Assembly: GCA_045617905.1 (NCBI GenBank) | Contig: JAZLJO010000020.1 | Coordinates: forward strand, 12,818-76,817 | DNA from: Candidatus Enterousia sp. | GTDB lineage: Bacteria; Pseudomonadota; Alphaproteobacteria; Rs-D84 | Direction: 5' to 3' | Length of the DNA: 64,000 bases | Shown here: positions 3,013 through 25,297 of the stretch, piece by piece | Position numbering within the stretch: the first letter of the stretch is position 1 | Layout of the letters: every line of letters starts with the position of its first letter | Notes under the pieces: model-generated | The model's database searches: none | Seen by the model: only the letters and a program-made list of their open reading frames with translations | Told to the model about the DNA's origin: nothing | Position numbers and translations under genes: made by a program

Positions 3013-3561
3013 ATTAAACCAACATTAAACCGCGATAATCGCCGTGATGCGGGTCCACGTATAAATAACCGCATTTTTGCAAAATCAGTTCAAGTTATCA
3101 GCAATTCTGGACAAAATCTGGGTATAATGCCAATTGCACAGGCGTTGTCATTGGCGGCGGATGAAGAATTAGATTTGGTTGAAATCAACGCTACGGCCAC
3201 ACCACCAATTGTAAAAATTATGGATTATGGCAAATTTAAATATGATCAAAAGAAACGTGCAAACGAGGCCAAGAAAAACCAAAAAACAACCGAACTTCGT
3301 GAAGTTTGGGTAAAGCCGTTTATAGAAGAAAACGATTTAAACATCAAAATGAAAAAGGTTTTCGAATTTCTAAACGATGGCAACAAAGTAAAAATATCTG
3401 TTATGACGAAGGGCAATCGGCGTGTATTGGCCAAAGGTCGTGATGCGGTTCCAGGATTATTCGCACACATTATGGAATTAATAGGGTCCCAAGGAACATT
3501 GGAATCAAAATCAAAACCAGATGAAAGAACAAAATCGATTATCGTTGCACCCGCAAGATGA
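3013..3561 (+). CDS. infC: translation initiation factor IF-3, ATT (AUU) start
   Basis: The ORF track begins at an internal Met (3127). The frame is open upstream to ATT 3013, placed 6 nt after AAGGAG (3001-3006). The extended N-terminus KPTLNRDNRRDAGPRINNRIFAKSVQVISNSGQNLGIM matches the IF-3 N-domain. Confidence 0.85.
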   Translation: MKPTLNRDNRRDAGPRINNRIFAKSVQVISNSGQNLGIMPIAQALSLAADEELDLVEINATATPPIVKIMDYGKFKYDQKKRANEAKKNQKTTELREVWVKPFIEENDLNIKMKKVFEFLNDGNKVKISVMTKGNRRVLAKGRDAVPGLFAHIMELIGSQGTLESKSKPDERTKSIIVAPAR

Positions 3562-15022: not shown

Positions 15023-15098
15023 TGGTGCCGGCCACAAGACTTGAACTTGCGACCCCTTCATTACGAATGAAGTGCTCTACCAGCTGAGCTAGGCCGGC
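15023..15098 (-). tRNA. tRNA-Thr (CGU)
   Basis: Reverse complement GCCGGCCTAGCTCAGCTGGTAGAGCACTTCATTCGTAATGAAGGGGTCGCAAGTTCAAGTCTTGTGGCCGGCACCA. Cloverleaf is complete, anticodon loop TTCGTAA. Confidence 0.9.
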
Positions 15099-15235: not shown

Positions 15236-18169
15236 TTAAAATAATGTTCCCCAACTTTTGTTTTTTGTTAATCTGGATATTTCCAATATTTGTTGAATAT
15301 CCGCATTTTGATTATTCATTGATTCAAAATTTTCTTGGGACAACAATACATAAACCCACTGTGAATTCATGCGTTCAGATTCCGGTAATTCATTTATTTT
15401 TGCAATCCAATCTATGGCCCCCAATTCTTTGGATTTAGTATCGGGATTATTTACACGATCATTTCCCTTGGTTTCAACAACATAAATTTTATTGCCAATT
15501 TTAATCATAAAATCTGGATAATATGTTGCCAACATGCCATCGGTCCGTAAATATCTGAAACGTGCAAAAGTGTGTTTATTTTCGTTAATTTTTATAACAC
15601 GTTCAACTGATGAATCATTATCACAGGCGATTAAGAAATTACGTTCCAATTCGCCTTTGTTCGACGGATAAAATGTTTTTTCATAAATTGATTTTTTGAT
15701 ATCCAGTGCATAATTATCACGTCCAACCATTTTATCAACCGATGAAAAATAATGTTTTTCAACGATTGCTTCTTTGACATCAATATTATTATGCATTTCA
15801 TATATAGCCTTGGACAATTCAGCCATGGTATGTTGAATTATTGTTGTTTTTGATAAAACCAATATTCGCCAATTGCCATCAATCATTGGATCAAATGACT
15901 GGTCAAACAAACGTGTTCGTATATATTTATCGATTGTACGAACAAGTAACGTTTGATCAATTTGCATTAATGGCATTTCTGTTTTATGACCATTCGATGC
16001 AACCTTTGCAAAATTGGTTGTTATCGCACTTAACATTTTTTGCAAATATTCATTATACGATTTTGCGGTAAATATATCGCCCCTCACTTTGTATTCACCA
16101 AATTTTGTATGAACCTGCATTTCGGTACCGATAAATCTGTCTGCGTCGTCATGTGGAACCATTGCCTTTAACTGTTCTAAATTCCAACCATCCAAAGGAC
16201 GCATATTATCAACCGATATTTCTTTGCCAGATAATGTTTCTTCTTTATCCTGGATAATATGTGGCCAAAACATATCATAATCGGCATAATTTTCTTTTAA
16301 TCCAACATTTATCATATCCCCCAATGCGGTTGTAGTATCACGTGGCCGTTCGTGTGTTTCGACGGCAACCATATCATGTCCCATTTGGTCATAAAATGAT
16401 TTAAATGCGGGATGTTCAACAACAAACAATGTATCCAAATAATTTGATGGGGCCTGCTTTAATTCATAGATATTACGTCTGTTTTCAGCCTTAATCTCGT
16501 CATATTCACGTCCACGCCACATTAAACGCAGACCACGTCCCAAAACCTGTTCCAGCAATATCGGGGCCTGTGATGAACGCAGTGGCACAATCACACAAAT
16601 ATTATTTACATCAAAGCCTTCGCGTAACATTAAAACACTGACCACAACCTTTGGATGTGATTGTTTATCCAATGTAAATAATTTTTGTTTTAAATTTAAC
16701 CATTCATCTTCTTTTAATTCGCCCTTTTTATTAGAATCAATTTGCATAATATCGTTATCCGATAAACCTTCGGATTTAAAGAAATCGCATACAAATGGTG
16801 AAACATCGGTATCTTCACAAACAACCATTAATTTCGGATGTTTGTTTATATCGTGTTTGGCAAAATCGTCTTCTAGGATTCGCAAACGCGACAGGCCCGC
16901 ACGCAACATTAAACGTTGTCCATCCGACAGACCGATTACTTTGCCGGCACTGTTACGAACAGATTTAAAATCAATTTCAGAATTTGCCAGCGACGCAATT
17001 TCTTTGCGTTCATCCAAAATAAATGTTTTTACAAATCCGGCACGCATGGCGGTTGTTAATTCAAAATTAACCACGATATGCGGAAAAAAATGTTTTGTTT
17101 CATTTTTACCACCACCGGTTACCGAATACGGGGTTGCAGAAAAATCAATTTGAATATAATTTGCATTTTTACCATTTGAAATGGTATTTAATGATTTTTG
17201 CCATTCAACGTCTTGGGTTATGCCATAACTTTTATTTTCATGAATATGATGGGCTTCGTCATTAAATACGCAAATATTTGGTAAATTTGATAAATATTCC
17301 AAAATACCACCACGCAATAATTTTGAATCCAATATATCCAATGCATTACCGGCGGTAATACCGGGGGAAACCGGTAAAATATCACGTGCCATAGTGCGTG
17401 TTTGTGACAAATCAAAATTATCAGTTTGCACGTCCGTTTGTTCATCATCGTCATCATCGCATAATGCGTGCCAATTTGTTACGGCAATTAAACCATCACC
17501 CGTTGTTTTTTTACCGATTTCGGTTTTATCGGCAACCGCATTTTGGACAAATGAATATATATCATGGCGATATTTTTCAGGAATAAATAAATCCTGATTG
17601 CTTTTTATATCCGACGTATCAAAATTTCTGTTACCGGGGGTAATTTCTTTGCCACGGAACGCATCCAACAACCGTTCATAAACAATTAAACCAGGTGCAA
17701 TTAACAAAAAGTTTTTTGTATATTTAACTCCATTATTTGTTTGATGTTTTGCATTTAAATATTGCCATACCAATAACGCATTTAACACCCATGTTTTTCC
17801 CGTCCCCGTTGCCATTTTTACACAATATTTTGGGCATTTATATTTTGGGTTGTTTACAACATTAATAAATTCAGTATCGGTTGGGACATTTTCACCAATT
17901 GCAGAATACATATCCGATACAGATGTTGATTTTAATATTTCATGAACATAAATAGTATTCAAAATTGCCTGGCGTTGGCCAGGATGAAAATTACGATCAC
18001 GAATATCACAAAACGATGAATCAAACCAATAACGCAACAGGTCTGCGGTTATTAGTGATACATTATTTATAAAATACCCAGATTCCCAATCCGCATTCAC
18101 CTGTTTTGTTAATTGGGCCGCAAATTGCAATGGAATATCACGTATTCCCGTATTTTTTGGTGCCGTCAT
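15236..18169 (-). CDS. res: type III restriction enzyme Res subunit (SF2 helicase plus C-terminal PD-(D/E)xK nuclease)
   Basis: Walker A MATGTGKTW, DEAH box FNDEAHHIH, helicase motif VI QVLGRGLR, and C-terminal nuclease motif YYPDFMIKIGNKIYVVETKG. ATG 18169 is preferred (GGGGG SD 5 nt upstream); ATG 18181 is an alternative. Confidence 0.9.
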   Translation of the reverse strand: MTAPKNTGIRDIPLQFAAQLTKQVNADWESGYFINNVSLITADLLRYWFDSSFCDIRDRNFHPGQRQAILNTIYVHEILKSTSVSDMYSAIGENVPTDTEFINVVNNPKYKCPKYCVKMATGTGKTWVLNALLVWQYLNAKHQTNNGVKYTKNFLLIAPGLIVYERLLDAFRGKEITPGNRNFDTSDIKSNQDLFIPEKYRHDIYSFVQNAVADKTEIGKKTTGDGLIAVTNWHALCDDDDDEQTDVQTDNFDLSQTRTMARDILPVSPGITAGNALDILDSKLLRGGILEYLSNLPNICVFNDEAHHIHENKSYGITQDVEWQKSLNTISNGKNANYIQIDFSATPYSVTGGGKNETKHFFPHIVVNFELTTAMRAGFVKTFILDERKEIASLANSEIDFKSVRNSAGKVIGLSDGQRLMLRAGLSRLRILEDDFAKHDINKHPKLMVVCEDTDVSPFVCDFFKSEGLSDNDIMQIDSNKKGELKEDEWLNLKQKLFTLDKQSHPKVVVSVLMLREGFDVNNICVIVPLRSSQAPILLEQVLGRGLRLMWRGREYDEIKAENRRNIYELKQAPSNYLDTLFVVEHPAFKSFYDQMGHDMVAVETHERPRDTTTALGDMINVGLKENYADYDMFWPHIIQDKEETLSGKEISVDNMRPLDGWNLEQLKAMVPHDDADRFIGTEMQVHTKFGEYKVRGDIFTAKSYNEYLQKMLSAITTNFAKVASNGHKTEMPLMQIDQTLLVRTIDKYIRTRLFDQSFDPMIDGNWRILVLSKTTIIQHTMAELSKAIYEMHNNIDVKEAIVEKHYFSSVDKMVGRDNYALDIKKSIYEKTFYPSNKGELERNFLIACDNDSSVERVIKINENKHTFARFRYLRTDGMLATYYPDFMIKIGNKIYVVETKGNDRVNNPDTKSKELGAIDWIAKINELPESERMNSQWVYVLLSQENFESMNNQNADIQQILEISRLTKNKSWGTLF

Positions 18170-18181
18170 TTTTACCCCCAT

Positions 18182-20185
18182 TTATAATTCAACAATTGCC
18201 ATTGATTCAAATCCGAAAACGTCAACCGCTTTGACACAGATTTTTCGTTTATGATTAACTTTGCCAACAATTATCTCGGCAGAATGCACGATGCGCAATG
18301 GGTCATCATCATTGGCGGTATTTTCACGATAATCCTGCCAAACACTGCGGAAAGTATTACCATCATAATCGGGGTCAATTGACCAATATTCAATTAAATC
18401 CAATGGGCTGGCCCCCATAATTTGTTGAACGGTTTCTTTGGATTTATCATCCAATGGCAGGTTATCTGGGGATAACAAAACATAGTTATCCAATGTAACA
18501 ATCAGTTTTTCTTTGCCGTCTTCGTTTGCGGGTTTTACAACAGGTTCTTTGATTGTTAAATATTGCAAAGAATTAAAGCGTATTTTTTTATTTTCAACCA
18601 AATCTTTGTAATCTTTCTTTTTCAGCAAATCCAATAAATCAGGTGGTATTACCAAAACATCAATGGATGATTTATCCAATGTCGCCAATTTATCACCAAT
18701 ATCAAAACTGAAATTCCACCCCAATATGATAACACGTTTCCATCCCCCCATAAATGCATCACGCATTTCCAGCGCACGTTCAATTGTATTCGCATTTGTT
18801 ATTTTATTGGGACTGTCCACGATTACCAATGTTGATTCATCGCGCATATGTCCAACATTTAATGGGGCATCCGCGTCATCAAATGGCAATGCCCCATACA
18901 GGCCCATAATAACCCGTGCCAGATCGGACACACGACGGAATTGTTTGTCAGACAAGAATGCCTCGCGCGAGTAATCGCCAATTGAATGATACAGGAACGG
19001 TTTACAATCGGGTATATCAATCAGGCGTTTGCGCATAATCATGGTGGACGGTTTACCCAAATCAGACGTTATCCAACGACGCCCTAATTTTTCCACAACG
19101 GCGGTGGTTGTTCCCGAACCACCAAAGAAATCCGCCACAATGGAATTTTCATTTGACGATGCTTTGATTATACGTTCCAATAATTTTTCTGGTTTTTGAG
19201 TATTGTAATGCACATTTTCTGCGGCAGTTCCTTGTACATTAATAATGTCTGACCAGATATCATCCAACGCAACCCCAGGCATATCGTTTAAATAAAATTT
19301 TATATTTATAATTCCATTTTTTGACACAACAACTCTATTTTCTAAATTCAATTGTACCATTGATTCATCCGATCTTGTCCCTTTTGGTTGTAATCTATAA
19401 CGTCCCCTTTCATCTTCGTATTTAAACGTAGAATTAATATAATCATCTGTGTAATCTTGGTATTGTCTATTAAAAATAAAATTCTGTGTTTTTACATAAT
19501 AAAAAATACAATCATGATTACGTCCGAATTGATTCGATTTTGCTTTTCCTCCTTTCATCGTATCACGTTTCCAGACAATCTCATTTCTGAAATTATCTTT
19601 TCCAAATATATCATCTAACATGACTTTCAAATAATGACCGGCGTGCCAATCACAATGAACGTAAATTGAACCTTGGTCGGACAACAATTCTTTCATCAGT
19701 ACCAAACGTGGATACAGCATTTTCAAATACGATATTGTGCCATCCGCCCATGTGTCGGAATATGCGAATTGTTCCAAAACGGTTGGTTTTTGTTCCACGT
19801 CCCCATTTGGCAAGGTTATTTTTGTTCGATAATCTGCCTTGGAATCAAAGGGCGGATCAATATAAATCAAATCAATTTTGCCACGCATACTTGGCAATCC
19901 GGTTGCTGGATCACCCGATAATAATGCCTGCATCGCAAACAGGTTATCGCCATGGATTAAACGATTAAACCAACCGTCCGCGTCACACAAGGCGCCGTCG
20001 GTTGGTGGACAACACGCCCTGATTTCACCACGGAACAGGCCACTGCTGTCACGGGCGGGTAAAACATATTCATTTGTTTGCAACATTAATTTATTATCAG
20101 ATTGTGCACGTTGTAATATTTTTTCAACCGTACGTTTACCCTGTGCAACAACATCCGGTAACATTTCAATCAGTGTTTTTGTCAT
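18182..20185 (-). CDS. mod: type III R-M Mod subunit (beta-class N6-adenine/N4-cytosine DNA methyltransferase)
   Basis: Motif IV IYIDPPF precedes motif I FFGGSGTT with a variable region between them, which is the Mod architecture. ATG 20185 lies 5 nt after GGGGG. The stop abuts res. Confidence 0.9.
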   Translation of the reverse strand: MTKTLIEMLPDVVAQGKRTVEKILQRAQSDNKLMLQTNEYVLPARDSSGLFRGEIRACCPPTDGALCDADGWFNRLIHGDNLFAMQALLSGDPATGLPSMRGKIDLIYIDPPFDSKADYRTKITLPNGDVEQKPTVLEQFAYSDTWADGTISYLKMLYPRLVLMKELLSDQGSIYVHCDWHAGHYLKVMLDDIFGKDNFRNEIVWKRDTMKGGKAKSNQFGRNHDCIFYYVKTQNFIFNRQYQDYTDDYINSTFKYEDERGRYRLQPKGTRSDESMVQLNLENRVVVSKNGIINIKFYLNDMPGVALDDIWSDIINVQGTAAENVHYNTQKPEKLLERIIKASSNENSIVADFFGGSGTTTAVVEKLGRRWITSDLGKPSTMIMRKRLIDIPDCKPFLYHSIGDYSREAFLSDKQFRRVSDLARVIMGLYGALPFDDADAPLNVGHMRDESTLVIVDSPNKITNANTIERALEMRDAFMGGWKRVIILGWNFSFDIGDKLATLDKSSIDVLVIPPDLLDLLKKKDYKDLVENKKIRFNSLQYLTIKEPVVKPANEDGKEKLIVTLDNYVLLSPDNLPLDDKSKETVQQIMGASPLDLIEYWSIDPDYDGNTFRSVWQDYRENTANDDDPLRIVHSAEIIVGKVNHKRKICVKAVDVFGFESMAIVEL

Positions 20186-20212
20186 ATTGCCCCCGTTTTG
20201 TGTTAAAACAAA

Positions 20213-20378
20213 AACCACCGGAAAAATCGGGTGGTTGGAGGTTCAGAACTATTATGCTATAAAAATAGTGTGCTTATTTTATGGGCATGCCCATATTATT
20301 CACAGCCCTCCAACCCTTTTAAGTTGGAGGTTTTTAACGTCCCCGCAGACGTATAGCATTCAGAGGTTCTGACACCCC
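20213..20378. repeat. structured GC-enriched element, copy A (between the mod start and the AT-rich module)
   Basis: Perfect stems: AACCACC/GGTGGTT (20213-19/20230-36), TCAGAAC/GTTCTGA (20243-49/20366-72), ATGCTATA/TATAGCAT (20254-61/20352-59), CCTCCAAC/GTTGGAGG (20307-14/20323-30). Central palindrome ATGGGCATGCCCAT (20281-94). Confidence 0.7.
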
Positions 20379-20454
20379 AATGGAAAAAATCATTCCATCG
20401 TTTTAATAATAAAAACAACCACACAAAAAATCAAATGAAAACGAATAAAAATAT

Positions 20455-20537: not shown

Positions 20538-20858
20538 CTAGAATATTGCCAATATATCTATTTCGTTGATTATTTCATTTAATGATTTATTTGCAAATAA
20601 CTTTGCAGACAAAAACGATTCCGTCATATCTGTTTGATTATCAAATAATTCGTCATACAATTGTTGTGATATACTGTCGTGTTTATTTTTCGTAATCGTT
20701 TCTTCGGATGAATATTCGTATTTTGACAACATTATAAAATATTTATGATTTTCATTAATGCCACTGCTTATCAAATATACAAAATCATTATATTTAAATT
20801 CAATATCACACCCATAAAAGATTTCGTTATATAATTCTTGAATATCTAATTTCTTCAT
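20538..20858 (-). CDS. hypothetical protein, one copy of a repeated ~90-aa domain (immunity-protein-like by context)
   Basis: ATG 20858 follows GGGGCGGA (MKKLDIQELYNEIFYGCDIEFKYNDFVYLI). The track start 20879 is an extension. No family recognised. Confidence 0.55.
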   Translation of the reverse strand: MKKLDIQELYNEIFYGCDIEFKYNDFVYLISSGINENHKYFIMLSKYEYSSEETITKNKHDSISQQLYDELFDNQTDMTESFLSAKLFANKSLNEIINEIDILAIF

Positions 20859-20988
20859 TTTCCGCCCCATTTTTATCACGTTCTAAATACGCACTGGTTA
20901 ATATATAATATTTATCATTGTATAAAATCTCTATATCACCACCATGATATAATTCGTCATAAAATTCAGAAAATGTAAACCCTTGCAT
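20827..20988 (-). pseudogene. 53-codon truncated paralogue of the downstream gene
   Basis: Hand translation MQGFTFSEFYDELYHGGDIEILYNDKYYILTSAYLERDKNGAENEEIRYSRII. Residues 7-32 align about 13/32 identical with the N-terminus of the 20538-20858 product. Below the 60-aa track cutoff. Confidence 0.35.
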
Positions 20989-21010
20989 TTTATAATCCGT
21001 TTATATTCCA

Positions 21011-21577
21011 TCATTTTAATATAAAATATTGCTGATTGGTTGTTTGCATTATATTTTTTATTGTGATTTGCATATTAGGTATTATAACCGAACATAAATC
21101 ATTAAAGTCAGATATTGTACGTTCGTATATTATATTACATTTTTCATCGCGTATTTGCAGCAAACAAGGTTTGATTAAATAAATAACAATATTTTTGTAA
21201 AACAATACAAAACTTACATCGTCAATTTTTTTATTTTCCAAGATGGACACAAATCTATCAAATACATTTCTTTGTGATAAAAATTTTTCACGTTTGTATG
21301 TCATACCAAGTTCAATATCATTTTCTGATAATTTGCTTAATATTTCATGCATTGTTTTGCCAACATTTTCCATTGGAATGTTTAACATATCGTCAAAATT
21401 ATTCCAACTATATTCATATATTTTTTGTGGTTTTGTCTTAAAATATCCATATCCATAATAATTACCATGATAATCAAAATGAAAATCATTAAAATCAAAA
21501 CGAAACAATTCTATAAAATCCTGTTTTTGTTTTTCTTTATTTATGGCAACCAATAATTTATCTAATGCGTTTTTCAT
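21011..21577 (-). CDS. hypothetical protein with two copies of the same repeated domain
   Basis: 188 aa. The motifs FRFDFNDFHFDY and FVLFYKNIVIYLI resemble FKYNDFVYLI of the downstream gene. Its ATG overlaps the upstream stop (ATGA). Confidence 0.55.
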   Translation of the reverse strand: MKNALDKLLVAINKEKQKQDFIELFRFDFNDFHFDYHGNYYGYGYFKTKPQKIYEYSWNNFDDMLNIPMENVGKTMHEILSKLSENDIELGMTYKREKFLSQRNVFDRFVSILENKKIDDVSFVLFYKNIVIYLIKPCLLQIRDEKCNIIYERTISDFNDLCSVIIPNMQITIKNIMQTTNQQYFILK

Positions 21578-21978
21578 TTGTTATGCTCCTGTATCTTGCG
21601 TATTATATCACCATATTCTTTTAATTCGTTATCACTGATTTGCCTGCCATTATTTTTACGTATCATATAATCTCCATCTTTAACGAAATCATGAACATGG
21701 ATATTGCCTTTATTTAATTTATAATGATTTTCATGTCCAAAATCTATATCTATGACGGGAGCATGATTTTTATAAATACGCATTTGTGTATATTTATTAT
21801 TTTTATTTACGGCAATATAAACATCCGATTTGCCAGAATACTCAGGTAACCCTGCTGATGTTTTTCCTTTGGCTTTTATAACTTTTTTACCATAAAATAA
21901 ATTTGTTGTTTCAAACAATGTATCATCAGGATTTAGATATGTAAAATTATTGCTTTTAAAAGCACCGCGACCACCCAT
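21574..21978 (-). CDS. small His-rich hypothetical protein (candidate effector/toxin, unassigned)
   Basis: 134 aa starting MGGRGAFKSN, with the motif DIDFGHENHYKLNKGNIHVHDF. Translationally coupled at both ends (TAATG, ATGA). GGGGGA SD lies inside the upstream gene. Confidence 0.55.
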   Translation of the reverse strand: MGGRGAFKSNNFTYLNPDDTLFETTNLFYGKKVIKAKGKTSAGLPEYSGKSDVYIAVNKNNKYTQMRIYKNHAPVIDIDFGHENHYKLNKGNIHVHDFVKDGDYMIRKNNGRQISDNELKEYGDIIRKIQEHNK

Positions 21979-22649
21979 TATTTATCCCCCATATTTGAAT
22001 TTGATATCCAGTTGTAAGTTGTATTATGTATATGTAATATTGGTATAGAGCTGTATTTAACAGCAAAATTACCACCATACATAATAATTTTACATGGTTT
22101 CAATCTATTTAACATCTCAACAAAACCGTTTTGAAAAAATTGTTTAGAATTATTATTCTTAGATATACCAACTGTTGAGACCGCTATAACACCATGTTTA
22201 TAAATACCATTAAAACAAAAATCATAACTATTTTTTCCAGCCCATGAAACATTCGGTATAACATTTATGCCATTTTTTTGAAAAATAGTCCCAATTAACC
22301 GCGTTCTAAATATATTATATATTTGAATTGGTTTAGGCATATCTAACAGTATAGAAAAATCGGGTTCTATAACACATGGGAACTTTTGTAATATAGGTAT
22401 ATATTTATATGGATTATTCCAAACAGATTCTATCTTTCTATCTTCTTGAAAAAAATGAACTATTTTATTTTTTTCTTTTGTTTTATATATATCAGAAAAA
22501 GCGATCGCTTCATTCGGTATTTGATCAAAAAGTTGTTTTTTTAAAACAGGAATTTGATACTCATTTGTTAAATTTTCATAATCTATATCATTCATATGAT
22601 ATTTTTTATCAAAAAAAACACTAATATGTTGCTGCATTTTTATTCTCAT
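21978..22649 (-). CDS. DUF4417-like protein
   Basis: 223 aa. HFFQEDRKIESVWNNPYKYIPILQKFPCVIEPDFSILLDMPKPIQIYNIFRTRLIGTIFQKNGINVIPNVSWAG matches my memory of the DUF4417 (phage/MGE-associated) consensus. Not verifiable here. Confidence 0.6.
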   Translation of the reverse strand: MRIKMQQHISVFFDKKYHMNDIDYENLTNEYQIPVLKKQLFDQIPNEAIAFSDIYKTKEKNKIVHFFQEDRKIESVWNNPYKYIPILQKFPCVIEPDFSILLDMPKPIQIYNIFRTRLIGTIFQKNGINVIPNVSWAGKNSYDFCFNGIYKHGVIAVSTVGISKNNNSKQFFQNGFVEMLNRLKPCKIIMYGGNFAVKYSSIPILHIHNTTYNWISNSNMGDK

Positions 22650-22682
22650 TGTTTATTTATTAAGTTAAATGAGAACTGGGCG

Positions 22683-22860
22683 GTCGGGGTGTTAGAAAAA
22701 TCAAATCGTTAATGATCCCATTGGTTTTTGGGCATGCCTTGAACATATACCAACGGCACCCCGATCATAACATGTAAAAATGCATACAATCGGATTACGA
22801 TGCTTTTGCACCGAACGATTGGGACTTTTCTAAGGTCCCGAACCCAATTCCCATTGGATT
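22683..22860. repeat. structured GC-enriched element, copy B (upstream of the DUF4417 operon)
   Basis: 22683-22720 pairs with 22824-22860 (about 31 bp including 2 G.T), for example TTAGAAAA/TTTTCTAA, TCGGG/CCCGA, ATCGTT/AACGAT. Central GGGCATGCC at 22740-48. Confidence 0.7.
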
Positions 22861-22975
22861 CGCTACAAAACATATATTTATTTTATCAAAAAATCAATAC
22901 AAAAATATAAATATGTATTTTTACAGGATTTGTATCATATGTATTATTATCTAAATTGATGGTATTTTATATATT

Positions 22976-23620
22976 ATGCATACGATATTGGCATATTACG
23001 GTTTAATGATTATAAAATTAATCATGGCAATTGGGGTTGCCGTCATATATTTGCGTTATTTTACCGCGGCGGGTAATTTAAAACAAATGACCGCATTGGA
23101 TATTATTATTAATTTCTTGTTAAGTGCGATTCTGTCTGATTTTATTTTGGACCGCCATATTGGTATTATGGATTTTGTTATAATTGTAACGATTTATGGG
23201 GTTCTGCTGTATGCACTTAGCAAATTAACCCTGTATACAAATGTTGGACGACGCATATTTATTGGAACACCACATGTCATTATTCAAAATGGAAAATTGG
23301 ACACAGAACGCATGGCACGATTAAATATATCGGCCCATGATTTGGCAATGGCATTACGCAGACAACAAATTCAATCCATTCATGATGTTGAAACCGCCGA
23401 AATAGAACCAAATGGTGATTTTACCATTGTAAAAAAAGGCGACAGAAAATATTCTGTTGTAATTATTGATAATGGTAATATTGATAAATTTGGGCTGGCA
23501 AAAATTCAGAAAAACGAAAAATGGCTGCGTACACAATTACGACGAAAAAAAATAAAAGACATTGATGATATTTTAATTGCCCAATGGCACAGGGGACGAT
23601 TACAAATTGTAAAAAAGTAA
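22976..23620 (+). CDS. DUF421 (YetF-like) membrane protein
   Basis: Three N-terminal TM helices followed by a soluble domain (GTPHVIIQNGKLDTERMARLNISAHDLAMALRRQQIQSIHDVETAEIEPNGDFT), typical of the YetF/YdfS family. Confidence 0.7.
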   Translation: MHTILAYYGLMIIKLIMAIGVAVIYLRYFTAAGNLKQMTALDIIINFLLSAILSDFILDRHIGIMDFVIIVTIYGVLLYALSKLTLYTNVGRRIFIGTPHVIIQNGKLDTERMARLNISAHDLAMALRRQQIQSIHDVETAEIEPNGDFTIVKKGDRKYSVVIIDNGNIDKFGLAKIQKNEKWLRTQLRRKKIKDIDDILIAQWHRGRLQIVKK

Positions 23621-23642
23621 AAAACCGGCAATCACCGGTTTT
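23621..23642. terminator. bidirectional terminator between the DUF421 gene and mnmG
   Basis: AAAACCGG-CAATCA-CCGGTTTT, with A and T runs on either side. Confidence 0.6.
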
Positions 23643-23644
23643 TT

Positions 23645-25297
23645 TTATTTATTTCCACACTTTATTTTACGCATAACAACCATTATGCCGGCCGGTGTCA
23701 TTCCGGGGATACGCGATAATGCCGCAATATTTTCCGGACGTGTAATTGTCAATTTTTCAATTAATTCATTCGTTAACCCAGGCATATTTTTATATTCAAA
23801 ATCACGTGGGATTTTTAATTCCATATCACGTTTATATGCGTCCATTTCACGAATCGAACGTTGAATATATCCGGCATAAAATTTATCGTTTTCTAAAATT
23901 TTCTGCGAACGCATTGCATATTTTTCACGATACATATCATCAGAAATCATATTACAACGCACCGCCATTTGTCCCAATCGGACAATCGCGTTATCCGCAC
24001 GCAAATGTAATCTGTATTCCGCACGTGATGTAAACATACGATATGGTTCATCAACACCCAACGTTGTTATATCATCAATCAATACACCAATCATTGAATT
24101 TGTTCTGTTTATATCCAACATTTCACCACCAATCGCACGGGCGGCAGCATTGGCACCGGCAATTAAGCCTTGGGCGGCGGCCTCTTCATAACCACTGGTA
24201 CCGTTAATTTGACCTGCAAAAAACAATCCGGGGATATCTTTGGATTCTAAATGTGCATCCAATTTACGTGCATCAATTGCATCATATTCAATTGCATACC
24301 CATAACGTGCAATACGTGCATTTTCCAACCCCGGTATTGTTCGTATCCAAATATCTTGAATATCGGCACCAAAACTGGTTGAAATGCCATTGGGGTATAT
24401 TAAATCGCTGTCTAAGCCTTCGGGTTCTAAGAAAACATGATGCGATGTGTGATCAACGAATCGCATTACCTTGTCTTCTAAACTGGGGCAATATCGCGGT
24501 CCAATCCCTTCGATATCGCCATTATACATCGGTGCATTTGCAATATTATCACGTATAATTTGATGTGTTTTTTCGGTTGTATGCGTAATAAAACACACCG
24601 CTTCATAATTATTTTCGGCGGTGGCGGTGGAAAACCAATCATGTGGTTTGTCACCCGGTTGCAATTCACACACAGAAAAATCAATACTGTCACGATAAAT
24701 ACGTGCCGGTGTTCCGGTTTTTAAACGCATTAAACGAAAACCTGCCCTTTCCAACACAGGTGATATATGTGTATCCGGTGATTGATATTCACCATTATCC
24801 ATTAAACGCCCCGATGATATTTTTTCAGCGCCACGCGTTACCAAACCACGCAAAAATGTTCCAGTTGTAAAAATCAACGCATTTGATTGGTATTTATCGT
24901 TTACAACTTTGGCATCAATATCTAATTTTTCAACGGTATCAAAAACGATTGTCAAATTCTGATATTCTTTTAAAATTTTTATAACCGCCGCATGATACAA
25001 TTTTCTGTCAATCTGGGCACGTAATGCCTGGGTCGCCGCCCCATGTGATGCATTTAATGTTCTGAAATGAATACCGGCACAATCGGCCGCACGGGGCATA
25101 ACGCCACCAAACGCATCCATTTCTGCGACCATTTGGGATTTTCCCGGCCCACCAATACTGGGGTTGCAAGACATTGCACCCAAATCTGTTTCATGCATGG
25201 TCAACAACAACGTTTTTGCACCACGACGGGCCGCAGCGGCGGCCGCTTCAACCCCGGCATGTCCCCCACCAATAACAATCACATCAAATTTTTGCAT
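23645..25297 (-). CDS. mnmG: tRNA uridine 5-carboxymethylaminomethyl modification enzyme MnmG (GidA), short form
   Basis: FDVIVIGGGHAGVEAA, MSCNPSIGGPGK, GPRYCPSLEDK, FFAGQINGTSGYEEAAAQG. It is 550 aa, against about 620-630 aa in E. coli, which is 629 aa. Confidence 0.9.
   Translation of the reverse strand: MQKFDVIVIGGGHAGVEAAAAAARRGAKTLLLTMHETDLGAMSCNPSIGGPGKSQMVAEMDAFGGVMPRAADCAGIHFRTLNASHGAATQALRAQIDRKLYHAAVIKILKEYQNLTIVFDTVEKLDIDAKVVNDKYQSNALIFTTGTFLRGLVTRGAEKISSGRLMDNGEYQSPDTHISPVLERAGFRLMRLKTGTPARIYRDSIDFSVCELQPGDKPHDWFSTATAENNYEAVCFITHTTEKTHQIIRDNIANAPMYNGDIEGIGPRYCPSLEDKVMRFVDHTSHHVFLEPEGLDSDLIYPNGISTSFGADIQDIWIRTIPGLENARIARYGYAIEYDAIDARKLDAHLESKDIPGLFFAGQINGTSGYEEAAAQGLIAGANAAARAIGGEMLDINRTNSMIGVLIDDITTLGVDEPYRMFTSRAEYRLHLRADNAIVRLGQMAVRCNMISDDMYREKYAMRSQKILENDKFYAGYIQRSIREMDAYKRDMELKIPRDFEYKNMPGLTNELIEKLTITRPENIAALSRIPGMTPAGIMVVMRKIKCGNK

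Follow-up and report, generated by a model that had tools for sequence, protein, structure and literature searches.

In phage T4, a short N-terminal capsid-targeting peptide on the internal head proteins marks unrelated proteins, among them an ADP-ribosyltransferase, for packaging and injection, and this signal is recognised by the scaffold and the prohead protease. Polymorphic toxin loci of the contact-dependent inhibition (CDI)/Rhs type, reportedly described by Zhang et al. in 2012, are said to contain orphan toxin tips together with immunity arrays. The MuF toxins of temperate phages are encoded beside packaging and head genes and join a constant N-terminal part to variable C-terminal toxins, including ADP-ribosyltransferase (ART) and BECR/DUF6883 domains, with a small downstream open reading frame (ORF) proposed as immunity (Jamet et al. 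2017, PMC5576092). A 2026 preprint places DUF6883 among the RNase toxins with a BECR fold, often found in fusion with Phage_Mu_F and then followed by a DUF4926 immunity gene (bioRxiv 10.64898/2026.08.28.747851). The domains of polyvalent proteins and solo effectors, which include PBECR RNases, ART, zincin, RadC/JAB and ParB, are located beside virion genes and are thought to be delivered with DNA (Iyer et al. 2017, PMC5512222). In the prophage-borne Bxa-type toxins of Bacteroidaceae, a dispensable conserved N-terminal domain is fused to diverse toxins with cognate immunity proteins, and both activity and immunity were shown experimentally (Alexei et al. 2024, PMC11699363). Here we analyse a cassette from Candidatus Enterousia sp. 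(assembly GCA_045617905.1, contig JAZLJO010000020.1, positions 12,818 to 76,817, a stretch of 64,000 nucleotides referred to below as the window), in which a gene of the DUF4417 family (G1) is followed by a small His-rich gene product that starts with MGGRG (G2), by a third small gene (G3), by an ORF of 53 amino acids (aa) and by a last gene, G4. We lean towards the view that this cassette is a phage-derived, DUF4417-linked polymorphic effector-immunity module now resident in a defence island of the chromosome.

Central to this proposal is an association between DUF4417 and the N-terminal tag MGGRG. In the 364 kb examined, 3,521 ORFs begin with ATG and span 50 codons or more; all 20 of these ORFs that start with MGGRG adjoin a DUF4417 gene, 18 of them downstream and two upstream; by our own estimate from residue frequencies, such a start is expected by chance at about 2e-5 per ORF. 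Among 16 loci found via DUF4417 alone, the neighbouring protein starts with MGGRG in 10, carries an internal GGRGA in two and shows the variant MGAGY in one. The remaining three (Lactococcus proPhi6, locus L039 and a Clostridium perfringens plasmid in which an amidoligase follows) lack the tag, and the MGGRG rule is therefore frequent, not universal. Tagged neighbours include gp18 of Dorea phage DO134P1, gp22 of Streptococcus phage Javan377, gp118 of Mycobacterium phage Tourach and gp2 of Gordonia phage JSwag, as well as proteins of loci L014, L037/L038, L040/L041 and L042/L043, and in a Rubrobacter plasmid a 79-aa MGGRG ORF lies upstream of the DUF4417 gene. Where the tag is internal, it follows some 65-73 residues, as in gp19 of phage phiBHN167 (LGGGRGANF) and a plasmid protein of Enterocloster bolteae (LDGGRGASS). 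Within the G2 family itself, 83 of 95 representatives start with MG and 29 of 95 with MG[GSA]RG. The first ~15 residues are disordered in the AlphaFold2 (AF2) model of G2, and we therefore regard the tag as a probable flexible handle outside the fold. A literature search on 'MGGRG' gave no phage- or toxin-related title among the matches listed, and the DUF4417/MGGRG rule appears to be undescribed.

Several individual loci bear on gene annotation. In Mycobacterium phage EagleEye (L031, NC_023564.1), an in-frame ORF at 1071-1910 begins MGGRGSGGGPGPGSG and, like gene 2 of JSwag, overlaps the end of gene 1. The annotated 'gp2 peptidase' of EagleEye, with its GTG start at 1437, is thus probably mis-started, the true start with its MGGRG lying 366 nt upstream at 1071. 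In Javan377 (L034, MK448744.1), an unannotated 151-aa ORF at 3099-3554 starts with MGGRGAKSSGG and lies between the ParB-DUF4417 gene and gp22, which gives this phage two consecutive MGGRG genes. In locus L042, the ParB-DUF4417 gene is flanked on either side by G2-like MGGRG genes. The largest tagged protein found, at ~890 aa, follows DUF4417 beside an SSB gene in L040/L041 (from 3137 and 1081, respectively) and has no Pfam match.

Behind this constant head, the domains change from locus to locus. Besides the window, the G2-type domain occurs in phrog_9479 proteins of Streptococcus and Dorea phages (G2 profile, E 3e-10 to 2.5e-8), those of Javan377 and DO134P1 scoring 3e-10 to 3e-9, and tblastn with Javan377 gp22 recovers relatives in 30 phage records, many of them overlapping the DUF4417 gene, such as a match in phage A25 at 71% identity (E 7e-50) that overlaps the A25 DUF4417 gene. 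Other tagged proteins carry unrelated domains: the protein of L029 matches DUF6883 (E 4e-14); JSwag gp2 matches ADPrib_exo_Tox, a VIP2-type ADP-ribosyltransferase (E 4e-21), and is followed by a 99-aa gene; the EagleEye protein has a zincin-like domain with a weak match to ATLF (E 1e-3); and a JAB-like HxHPxGxxxSxxD domain follows the internal tag in both phiBHN167 gp19 and the E. bolteae plasmid protein. Several further tagged domains have no family match. L029 also contains a displaced 65-aa fragment of the G2 C-terminus (DIDWGHDH...VHVH), followed by a 97-aa G3-like gene. A constant MGGRG head with unrelated C-terminal domains, a displaced tip and a small gene directly downstream of G2 together form the signature of a polymorphic toxin locus. 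A third small gene is present in the chromosomal copies and absent where the pair immediately precedes the genes for terminase (Dorea, Javan377 and L042), a pattern that fits immunity being needed only where expression is non-terminal. These observations bear out the direction of the sequence-only reading, which had proposed a toxin/immunity locus or, failing that, phage cargo of the polyvalent type: DUF4417 does sit beside MGGRG-tagged, swappable domains of the toxin type.

The relatives of G2 came to light when HMMER was run exhaustively over 1.84 billion cluster representatives, which was needed because word-indexed homology searches with G2 and G3 returned essentially only self-matches. 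The loci found through G2 come from a rumen bacterium (L001), three metagenome-assembled genomes of Thermoguttaceae and four metagenome contigs, and gene order was scored wherever the contig reached far enough; a close relative of the window lineage (L006/L012) was also compared. G2 lies beside DUF4417 in every locus examined, and the order DUF4417, G2, G3, with overlapping or abutting stops and starts, recurs in L001, L003/L004 (Thermoguttaceae), L007-L010 (metagenomes) and L006/L012. G3 homologues of 88-111 aa abut G2 in eight independent loci (L001, L003, L004, L006-L010). The trio thus extends over Planctomycetota, rumen and gut bacteria and viral contigs, and it is found in distant phyla outside prophages too. 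The conserved unit comprises three genes and not the four originally envisaged, and G4 and the 53-aa ORF, which have no clear counterpart elsewhere, are lineage-specific extras.

All three conserved genes are under purifying selection. In the close relative (L012/L006), the cassette directly follows mnmG, and amino acid identity to the window is 77% for G1, 88% for G2 and 68% for G3. The corresponding dN/dS ratios (Nei-Gojobori) are 0.24 for G1, 0.10 for G2 and 0.21 for the N-terminal domain of G3, next to 0.15 for mnmG. Over window positions 21011-25297, dS is 0.57-0.75 in the cassette versus 1.54 in the adjacent mnmG, which suggests either a later transfer between the lineages after their split or an extreme AT bias that depresses the estimate. 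Two further loci show the settings in which DUF4417 genes are found. In Mogibacterium sp. (L015, JALFKS010000018.1, 5001-6240), DUF4417, a truncated 49-aa ORF starting MGAGY and a 124-aa gene are inserted between parAB and rsmG-mnmG-mnmE, and adjoin mnmG as in the window lineage. An unverified record named 'Bacteriophage sp.' (L019, MT835546.1) has S1-domain, PSP1-like and DNA polymerase III delta'-like genes and an XRE/ImmA pair; because such housekeeping-looking genes surround its DUF4417 cassette, this record looks chromosomal rather than phage.

The G2 family comprises 96 representatives, whose full-length members are standalone proteins of about 118-162 aa, with P0013 and P0095 as exceptions, and share an MG(G/S)RG start and the motifs LPxxSNTS, QLRxY, DxDWGHxH and VHVH. 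The earlier suggestion that G2 is a detached domain is not upheld by these standalone relatives; similar folds within larger viral proteins were seen by Foldseek only. P0013 (757 aa), which seemed to hold eight stretches of the domain, was considered as a G2 array and rejected as a low-complexity repeat protein. In the AF2 model of G2 (predicted local distance difference test score, pLDDT, 83; predicted template modelling score, pTM, 0.78), a β-rich domain is followed by a C-terminal helix, with residues 1-4 and 10-15 disordered. Residues D79, H82 and H94 are nearly invariant, as are R67 and Y54, and their conservation suggests a putative metal site. A Foldseek comparison of the model with the PDB gave no match (best E 0.24), and sequence-profile searches of the PDB with G1 and G2 gave nothing significant, a hit to 6ox6_B at E 0.57 being dismissed; on the predicted structure, G2 would represent a His-rich fold without a solved relative. 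Three viral models in BFVD do match (E~1e-4, template modelling (TM) score ~0.5, root-mean-square deviation ~3 Å over 99 columns), belonging to proteins of 148 aa, 367 aa ('phage protein') and 406 aa ('minor capsid protein'), and the last of these names suggests a MuF-type fusion of a G2-like fold. The only Pfam match of G2 is sub-threshold and acyl carrier protein-like. By tblastn against phage genomes, the window G2 found no match and the family consensus matched one record; relatives in known phages were recovered only by profile search and through their DUF4417 neighbours.

Beyond its conserved N-terminal domain, G3 has a C-terminal half (residues 95-188) that scores 9.3 bits against the N-domain profile, with none of 2000 shuffles as good. 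This half looks like a degenerate, lineage-specific second copy of the N-domain, and it differs in the close relative. In the natural protein P0095 (250 aa), G2 (E 8e-26) and G3 (E 5e-9, 0 of 2000 shuffles as good, scored with a G3 profile built without P0095) are fused, which provides an argument for contact between the two proteins. G3, G4 and the truncated ORF had been read as built from one repeated domain, and part of this holds. The 53-aa ORF is paralogous to G4 (BLASTP E=4e-8, 38% identity over 39 aa) and G3 appears to be internally duplicated, as described above; of the orphan fragments and extra immunity genes typical of polymorphic loci, the displaced G2 tip and G3-like gene of L029 are a clear case, and the 53-aa ORF/G4 pair of the window, for which a relation to G3 is unsupported, is a candidate one. 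Homology between G3 and G4 was rejected by BLASTP, by profile shuffles and by an hhalign comparison between the G3 family and the G4-like group (probability below 1%): the G3-family profile scores 2.3 bits on G4, with 398 of 2000 shuffles as good, and is marginal on the 53-aa ORF (67 of 2000). G4 has no clear homologue in other cassettes and a weak match to phrog_3711 (E=5.6e-4); we see it as a candidate for an orphan protein of the immunity-like kind. In L019, the third gene shows a marginal match to the 53-aa ORF (BLASTP E=0.028) and none to G4 (E=1.0).

The assignment of G1 to DUF4417, first proposed from the sequence alone, is secure: the protein matches Pfam PF14386 with E=3.8e-59 and 199.7 bits against a cut-off of 28.9, over profile positions 4-175 of 183, and also matches phrog_8680 and phrog_940. 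H65, D70, D97, S99, Q109, R115 and T159 are invariant or nearly so, and in the α/β AF2 model (pLDDT 84, pTM 0.82) they fall in or near predicted strand segments. The top PDB matches by Foldseek are tRNA-guanine transglycosylases (TGTs) and other TIM barrels, at weak scores (E 0.014-0.09, TM 0.38-0.43), and by sequence there is no Pfam TGT match and nothing significant in a PDB sequence-profile search. We treat the predicted TIM-barrel/TGT resemblance as a lead only. DUF4417 is present in at least 503 of 50,697 phage records, mainly from phages of Mycobacterium, Streptococcus and Gordonia, and in 58 plasmids, 53 of which are of the C. perfringens type. In Streptococcus, Lactococcus and Dorea phages and several viral contigs, DUF4417 and its neighbour lie directly before the small and large terminase genes. 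In those Mycobacterium and Gordonia phages whose DUF4417 matches fall in the first ~1.3 kb of the record, such as EagleEye, JSwag and Che12, the pair forms genes 1-2 at the genome end; we take these to be cluster A phages. Many copies carry a ParB-type domain as an N-terminal fusion, and a 2025 preprint names DUF4417, without a function, as one of the fusion partners of the ParB-CTPase fold that are enriched in phages; no function was attached to the family in the papers examined, and one further mention is an annotation label. In the one C. perfringens plasmid inspected, pNCTC3110etx (L045, 2402-4579), DUF4417 is followed by a 470-aa amidoligase-family protein that lacks the MGGRG start, and this partner might bear on the chemistry of DUF4417.

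The features of the locus are collected in Table 1. Recomputing them from the sequence reproduced the ORF coordinates, the closing terminator hairpin, the low G+C content (0.24-0.29 over the module versus 0.35-0.45 in flanking genes) and both stop/start overlaps (TAATG at 21978 between G1 and G2, ATGA at 21574 between G2 and G3). On its two sides, the cassette is flanked by mnmG, yetF, the type III restriction-modification (R-M) genes, the tRNA-Thr gene and ileS; the R-M system, recognised by both Pfam and PADLOC, and the tRNA gene are present as had been claimed. No phage genes other than those of the cassette occur near it in the ORF list of the window. The type III R-M genes form the context of the cassette, of which they are at most putative members. 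A comparable defence-island setting recurs elsewhere, with R-M genes after the cassette in L001 and L008 as in the window. In L008 (2050-4868), an unrelated high-GC metagenome contig, type III mod and res follow in the same order, and in L001 the pair is of type II, a methyltransferase with an R.Pab1-family endonuclease. No R-M neighbours were found beside the Thermoguttaceae copies. Both a functional link and plain clustering in defence islands stand as readings of these associations. The suggested PADLOC run (PADLOC-DB v2.0.0) matched the cassette to no model, with chance-level scores for G1 and G4 (E 0.004-0.009) and none for G2, G3 or the 53-aa ORF; the cassette is therefore not a catalogued defence system.

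Table 1. Features of the DUF4417 cassette and its surroundings in the window
Feature	Position	Strand	Description
G1 (DUF4417 protein)	21978-22649	-	223 aa; the database version starts at ATG 22637 and has 219 aa
G2	21574-21978	-	134 aa, basic, His-rich, starts MGGRG
G3	21011-21577	-	188 aa; the N-terminal ~93 aa are the conserved domain
53-aa ORF	20827-20988	-	truncated paralogue of the G4 N-terminus, runs out of frame into the G4 start
G4	20538-20879	-	acidic, 106-113 aa, pI 4.4; probable ATG start at 20858
terminator-like hairpin	20481-20455	-	12-bp stem, 3-nt loop, T-rich tail; closes the module
type III mod	18182-20218	-	Pfam N6_N4_Mtase 1e-42; PADLOC MTase_III 1.9e-82
type III res	15236-18181	-	Pfam ResIII 9e-14; PADLOC REase_III 8e-25
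tRNA-Thr	15023-15098		beyond res, downstream of the cassette
yetF/DUF421 gene	22976-23620	+	between the cassette and mnmG
element A	22680-22872	-	~185-190-nt structured non-coding element directly upstream of G1 (covariation, fold z-score)
element B	20231-20410	-	diverged second copy of A with the same orientation; lies between cassette and mod (covariance model)

Elements A and B are two direct copies of a structured non-coding element, one on each side of the cassette. Element A is 91% identical to positions 2059-2250 of L012, though the synonymous sites of the adjacent mnmG are saturated (dS=1.54); its minimum free energy is -63.2 kcal/mol (z=-4.6), and a 7-bp helix is kept by compensatory changes (AAUCGUU/AACGAUU versus UCAUAUU/AAUAUGA). 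Element B aligns over its full length to a covariance model of element A built from the window and L012 copies (19.7 bits, E~8e-4 on a rough calibration); the similarity between the two flanks is unseen by BLASTN, chance-like in MAFFT and recovered by the covariance model only. Neither element matches an Rfam family. The covariance model finds no match in the cassettes of other phyla, which places element A outside the conserved system as a lineage-specific feature. Each copy precedes a gene block, A the cassette and B the type III R-M genes, and the elements are possibly a leader or regulatory RNA, or a boundary or recombination element of the cassette. At L012 2015-2303, mnmG is followed directly by element A and the cassette, where the window has the opposite-strand yetF/DUF421 gene in between, an indel difference.

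The cassette can now be set against the systems introduced above. As with the MuF toxins, the tagged genes are phage-encoded beside packaging and head genes, combine a constant N-terminal part with variable C-terminal domains that include ART and DUF6883, and may be followed by a small ORF; a viral 'minor capsid protein', so named in the database, also shares the G2-like fold by Foldseek. In contrast to those toxins, G2 has no MuF domain in Pfam, the constant part is reduced to the five residues MGGRG and a flexible linker, the companion is a separate DUF4417 gene, and the window copy lies outside a prophage head module, although its phage relatives do sit in one. The repertoire of conflict domains resembles that of polyvalent proteins, which are giant and multidomain whereas the cassette proteins are small and have a single domain; a text search for 'DUF4417' matched neither the description of those proteins (PMC5512222) nor that of the Bxa-type toxins (PMC11699363). 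Bxa-type toxins differ in their N-terminal domain and in having measured activities where ours are read from genes. The displaced C-terminal fragment of L029, with its own immunity-like gene, and the truncated gene and extra small acidic genes after the main pair in the window recall CDI/Rhs-type loci, but the cassette has neither a secretion-system domain nor a long N-terminal delivery region, and the orphan array in the window is short, with members that are only putative immunity proteins. Like the T4 internal head proteins, the tagged proteins share a short N-terminal peptide, not a domain, on otherwise unrelated sequences; the two sets are unrelated in sequence, the T4 signal has recognisers other than a DUF4417-like protein, and packaging through MGGRG would be a hypothetical function. 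Type II toxin-antitoxin (TA) modules are also dissimilar: G3 and G4 carry no DNA-binding antitoxin domain (helix-turn-helix, ribbon-helix-helix or AbrB-type), and G2 matches no TA toxin family.

From gene order, sequence conservation and these comparisons, we infer the following scheme for the toxicity of G2, its neutralisation, the action of DUF4417 and a possible defence phenotype. G2 would be the effector, with the flexible MGGRG tag preceding a compact β-rich domain, and is probably a metal-dependent toxin because of its conserved Asp/His cluster. G3, which is translationally coupled to G2, would bind and neutralise it, and the 53-aa ORF and G4 may be additional immunity-like genes left by recombination. 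G1 is predicted to be enzyme-like and may recognise the (M)GGRG tag and then process, modify or load the tagged protein. In phages, the pair of DUF4417 and MGGRG genes at the boundary of packaging and head genes probably supplies an effector to the virion or to the cell under infection, a role that would be the counterpart of the MuF fusion for the same kinds of toxin domains. On the chromosome, the cassette could act as a toxin-immunity unit, of the addiction or abortive-infection-like kind, as immunity against related phage-borne effectors, or as both. A wider and more tentative proposal, to which we give somewhat less than even weight, is that DUF4417 is the signature of an unrecognised, phylum-spanning phage effector system in which (M)GGRG singles out toxins and enzymes of diverse kinds that DUF4417 would process, modify or load. 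Under this proposal, the system would serve as a functional alternative to the MuF fusion, the tag would sometimes be exposed only after a pro-region of ~70 aa, loading might occur onto DNA or into the virion by way of the ParB-fused forms, and bacteria would have captured such cassettes, that of the window included, together with immunity genes as toxin-immunity or anti-effector units.

A number of observations weigh against an effector-immunity module. G2 matches no Pfam, PHROG, NCBIfam or PADLOC family and no PDB fold, and hence no known toxin family, and the connection to MuF is a database name on one Foldseek match. G2-type genes of lytic modules occur without any downstream small gene, Bacteroidota-type viral contigs place a different gene of ~132 aa between DUF4417 and G2, and a relation of G4 to G3 is unsupported. 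P0095 would join a toxin to its own immunity protein, which is unusual, and fits two subunits of one complex equally. Similarly, the conserved polar residues and the ParB fusions of DUF4417 fit a DNA-directed enzyme equally well, and its role as a tag-directed processing or loading factor is one that we infer from the genes around it.

Some of these points lead to other explanations. DUF4417 could be a TGT/DpdA-like, base-altering enzyme of DNA modification or anti-restriction, with G2 and G3 as accessory or specificity subunits acting with or against the R-M system. The transglycosylase that heads the Foldseek list (E 0.014, probability 0.85), followed by TIM barrels that include Endo IV, is what such an enzyme might be expected to retrieve, but at TM scores of 0.39-0.43 the structural likeness is weak, and the two families are not connected by any sequence profile. 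Phage DUF4417 is often part of a ParB/Srx-type fusion, at an architectural position otherwise held by DNA methyltransferase domains, and its place just before the terminase genes is a frequent site of phage DNA-modification genes; against this, no base-precursor biosynthesis genes lie near the cassette, and a neighbouring gene that encodes unrelated toxin-type domains (ART, RNase, peptidase) is unlike the accessory subunits of one DNA enzyme. R-M genes after the cassette in the window, L001 and L008 are likewise set against the Thermoguttaceae copies that lack them. We consider this explanation unlikely, and the anti-restriction function raised as one possibility by the sequence-only reading is unsupported. 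It is similarly improbable, in our judgement, that the trio forms a three-component defence complex of the abortive-infection type, for example of sensor, effector and regulator, with the phage copies as counter-defence or exclusion versions. Such a complex would account for the retention of the trio in non-phage chromosomal settings beside R-M systems, a RhuM-family gene and an AAA ATPase, for the stable association suggested by the G2-G3 fusion P0095, for purifying selection on all of G1, G2 and G3, and for the presence, in L019 and L027, of upstream genes for XRE/ImmA-type regulators or PIN proteins. It sits less well with the dispensability of G3 in many loci, with a pairing of DUF4417 and tagged protein that is far commoner in phage late-gene regions than in defence islands, with the lack of a PADLOC model match, and with the swapping of domains behind a constant tag, which is typical of delivered effectors and not of a fixed complex.

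We regard it as highly improbable that the cassette is an inert, functionless remnant of a degraded prophage or mobile element. Its very low GC relative to the flanks, the truncated ORF, the degenerate C-terminal half of G3 that differs in the relative, and a neighbourhood free of other phage genes would all be expected of such a remnant. Against it stand the intact, overlapping ORFs, the dN/dS of 0.10-0.24 measured with a relative whose flanking synonymous sites are saturated, and the retention of the trio in distant phyla outside prophages.

The association of DUF4417 with the MGGRG tag suggests a concrete job for a large family that has had no function, and whose members include genes of cluster A mycobacteriophages and of Streptococcus phage A25. 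The tagged proteins appear to form a new polymorphic effector family. The rule also corrects gene starts, as it probably does for EagleEye gp2, and reveals unannotated genes, as in Javan377, and the tag offers a simple sequence handle with which new toxin and immunity domains, such as the His-rich fold of G2, can be mined. Should the chromosomal copies give protection from effectors that phages deliver, or work as modules of abortive infection, they would constitute a new entry in the catalogue of defence islands.

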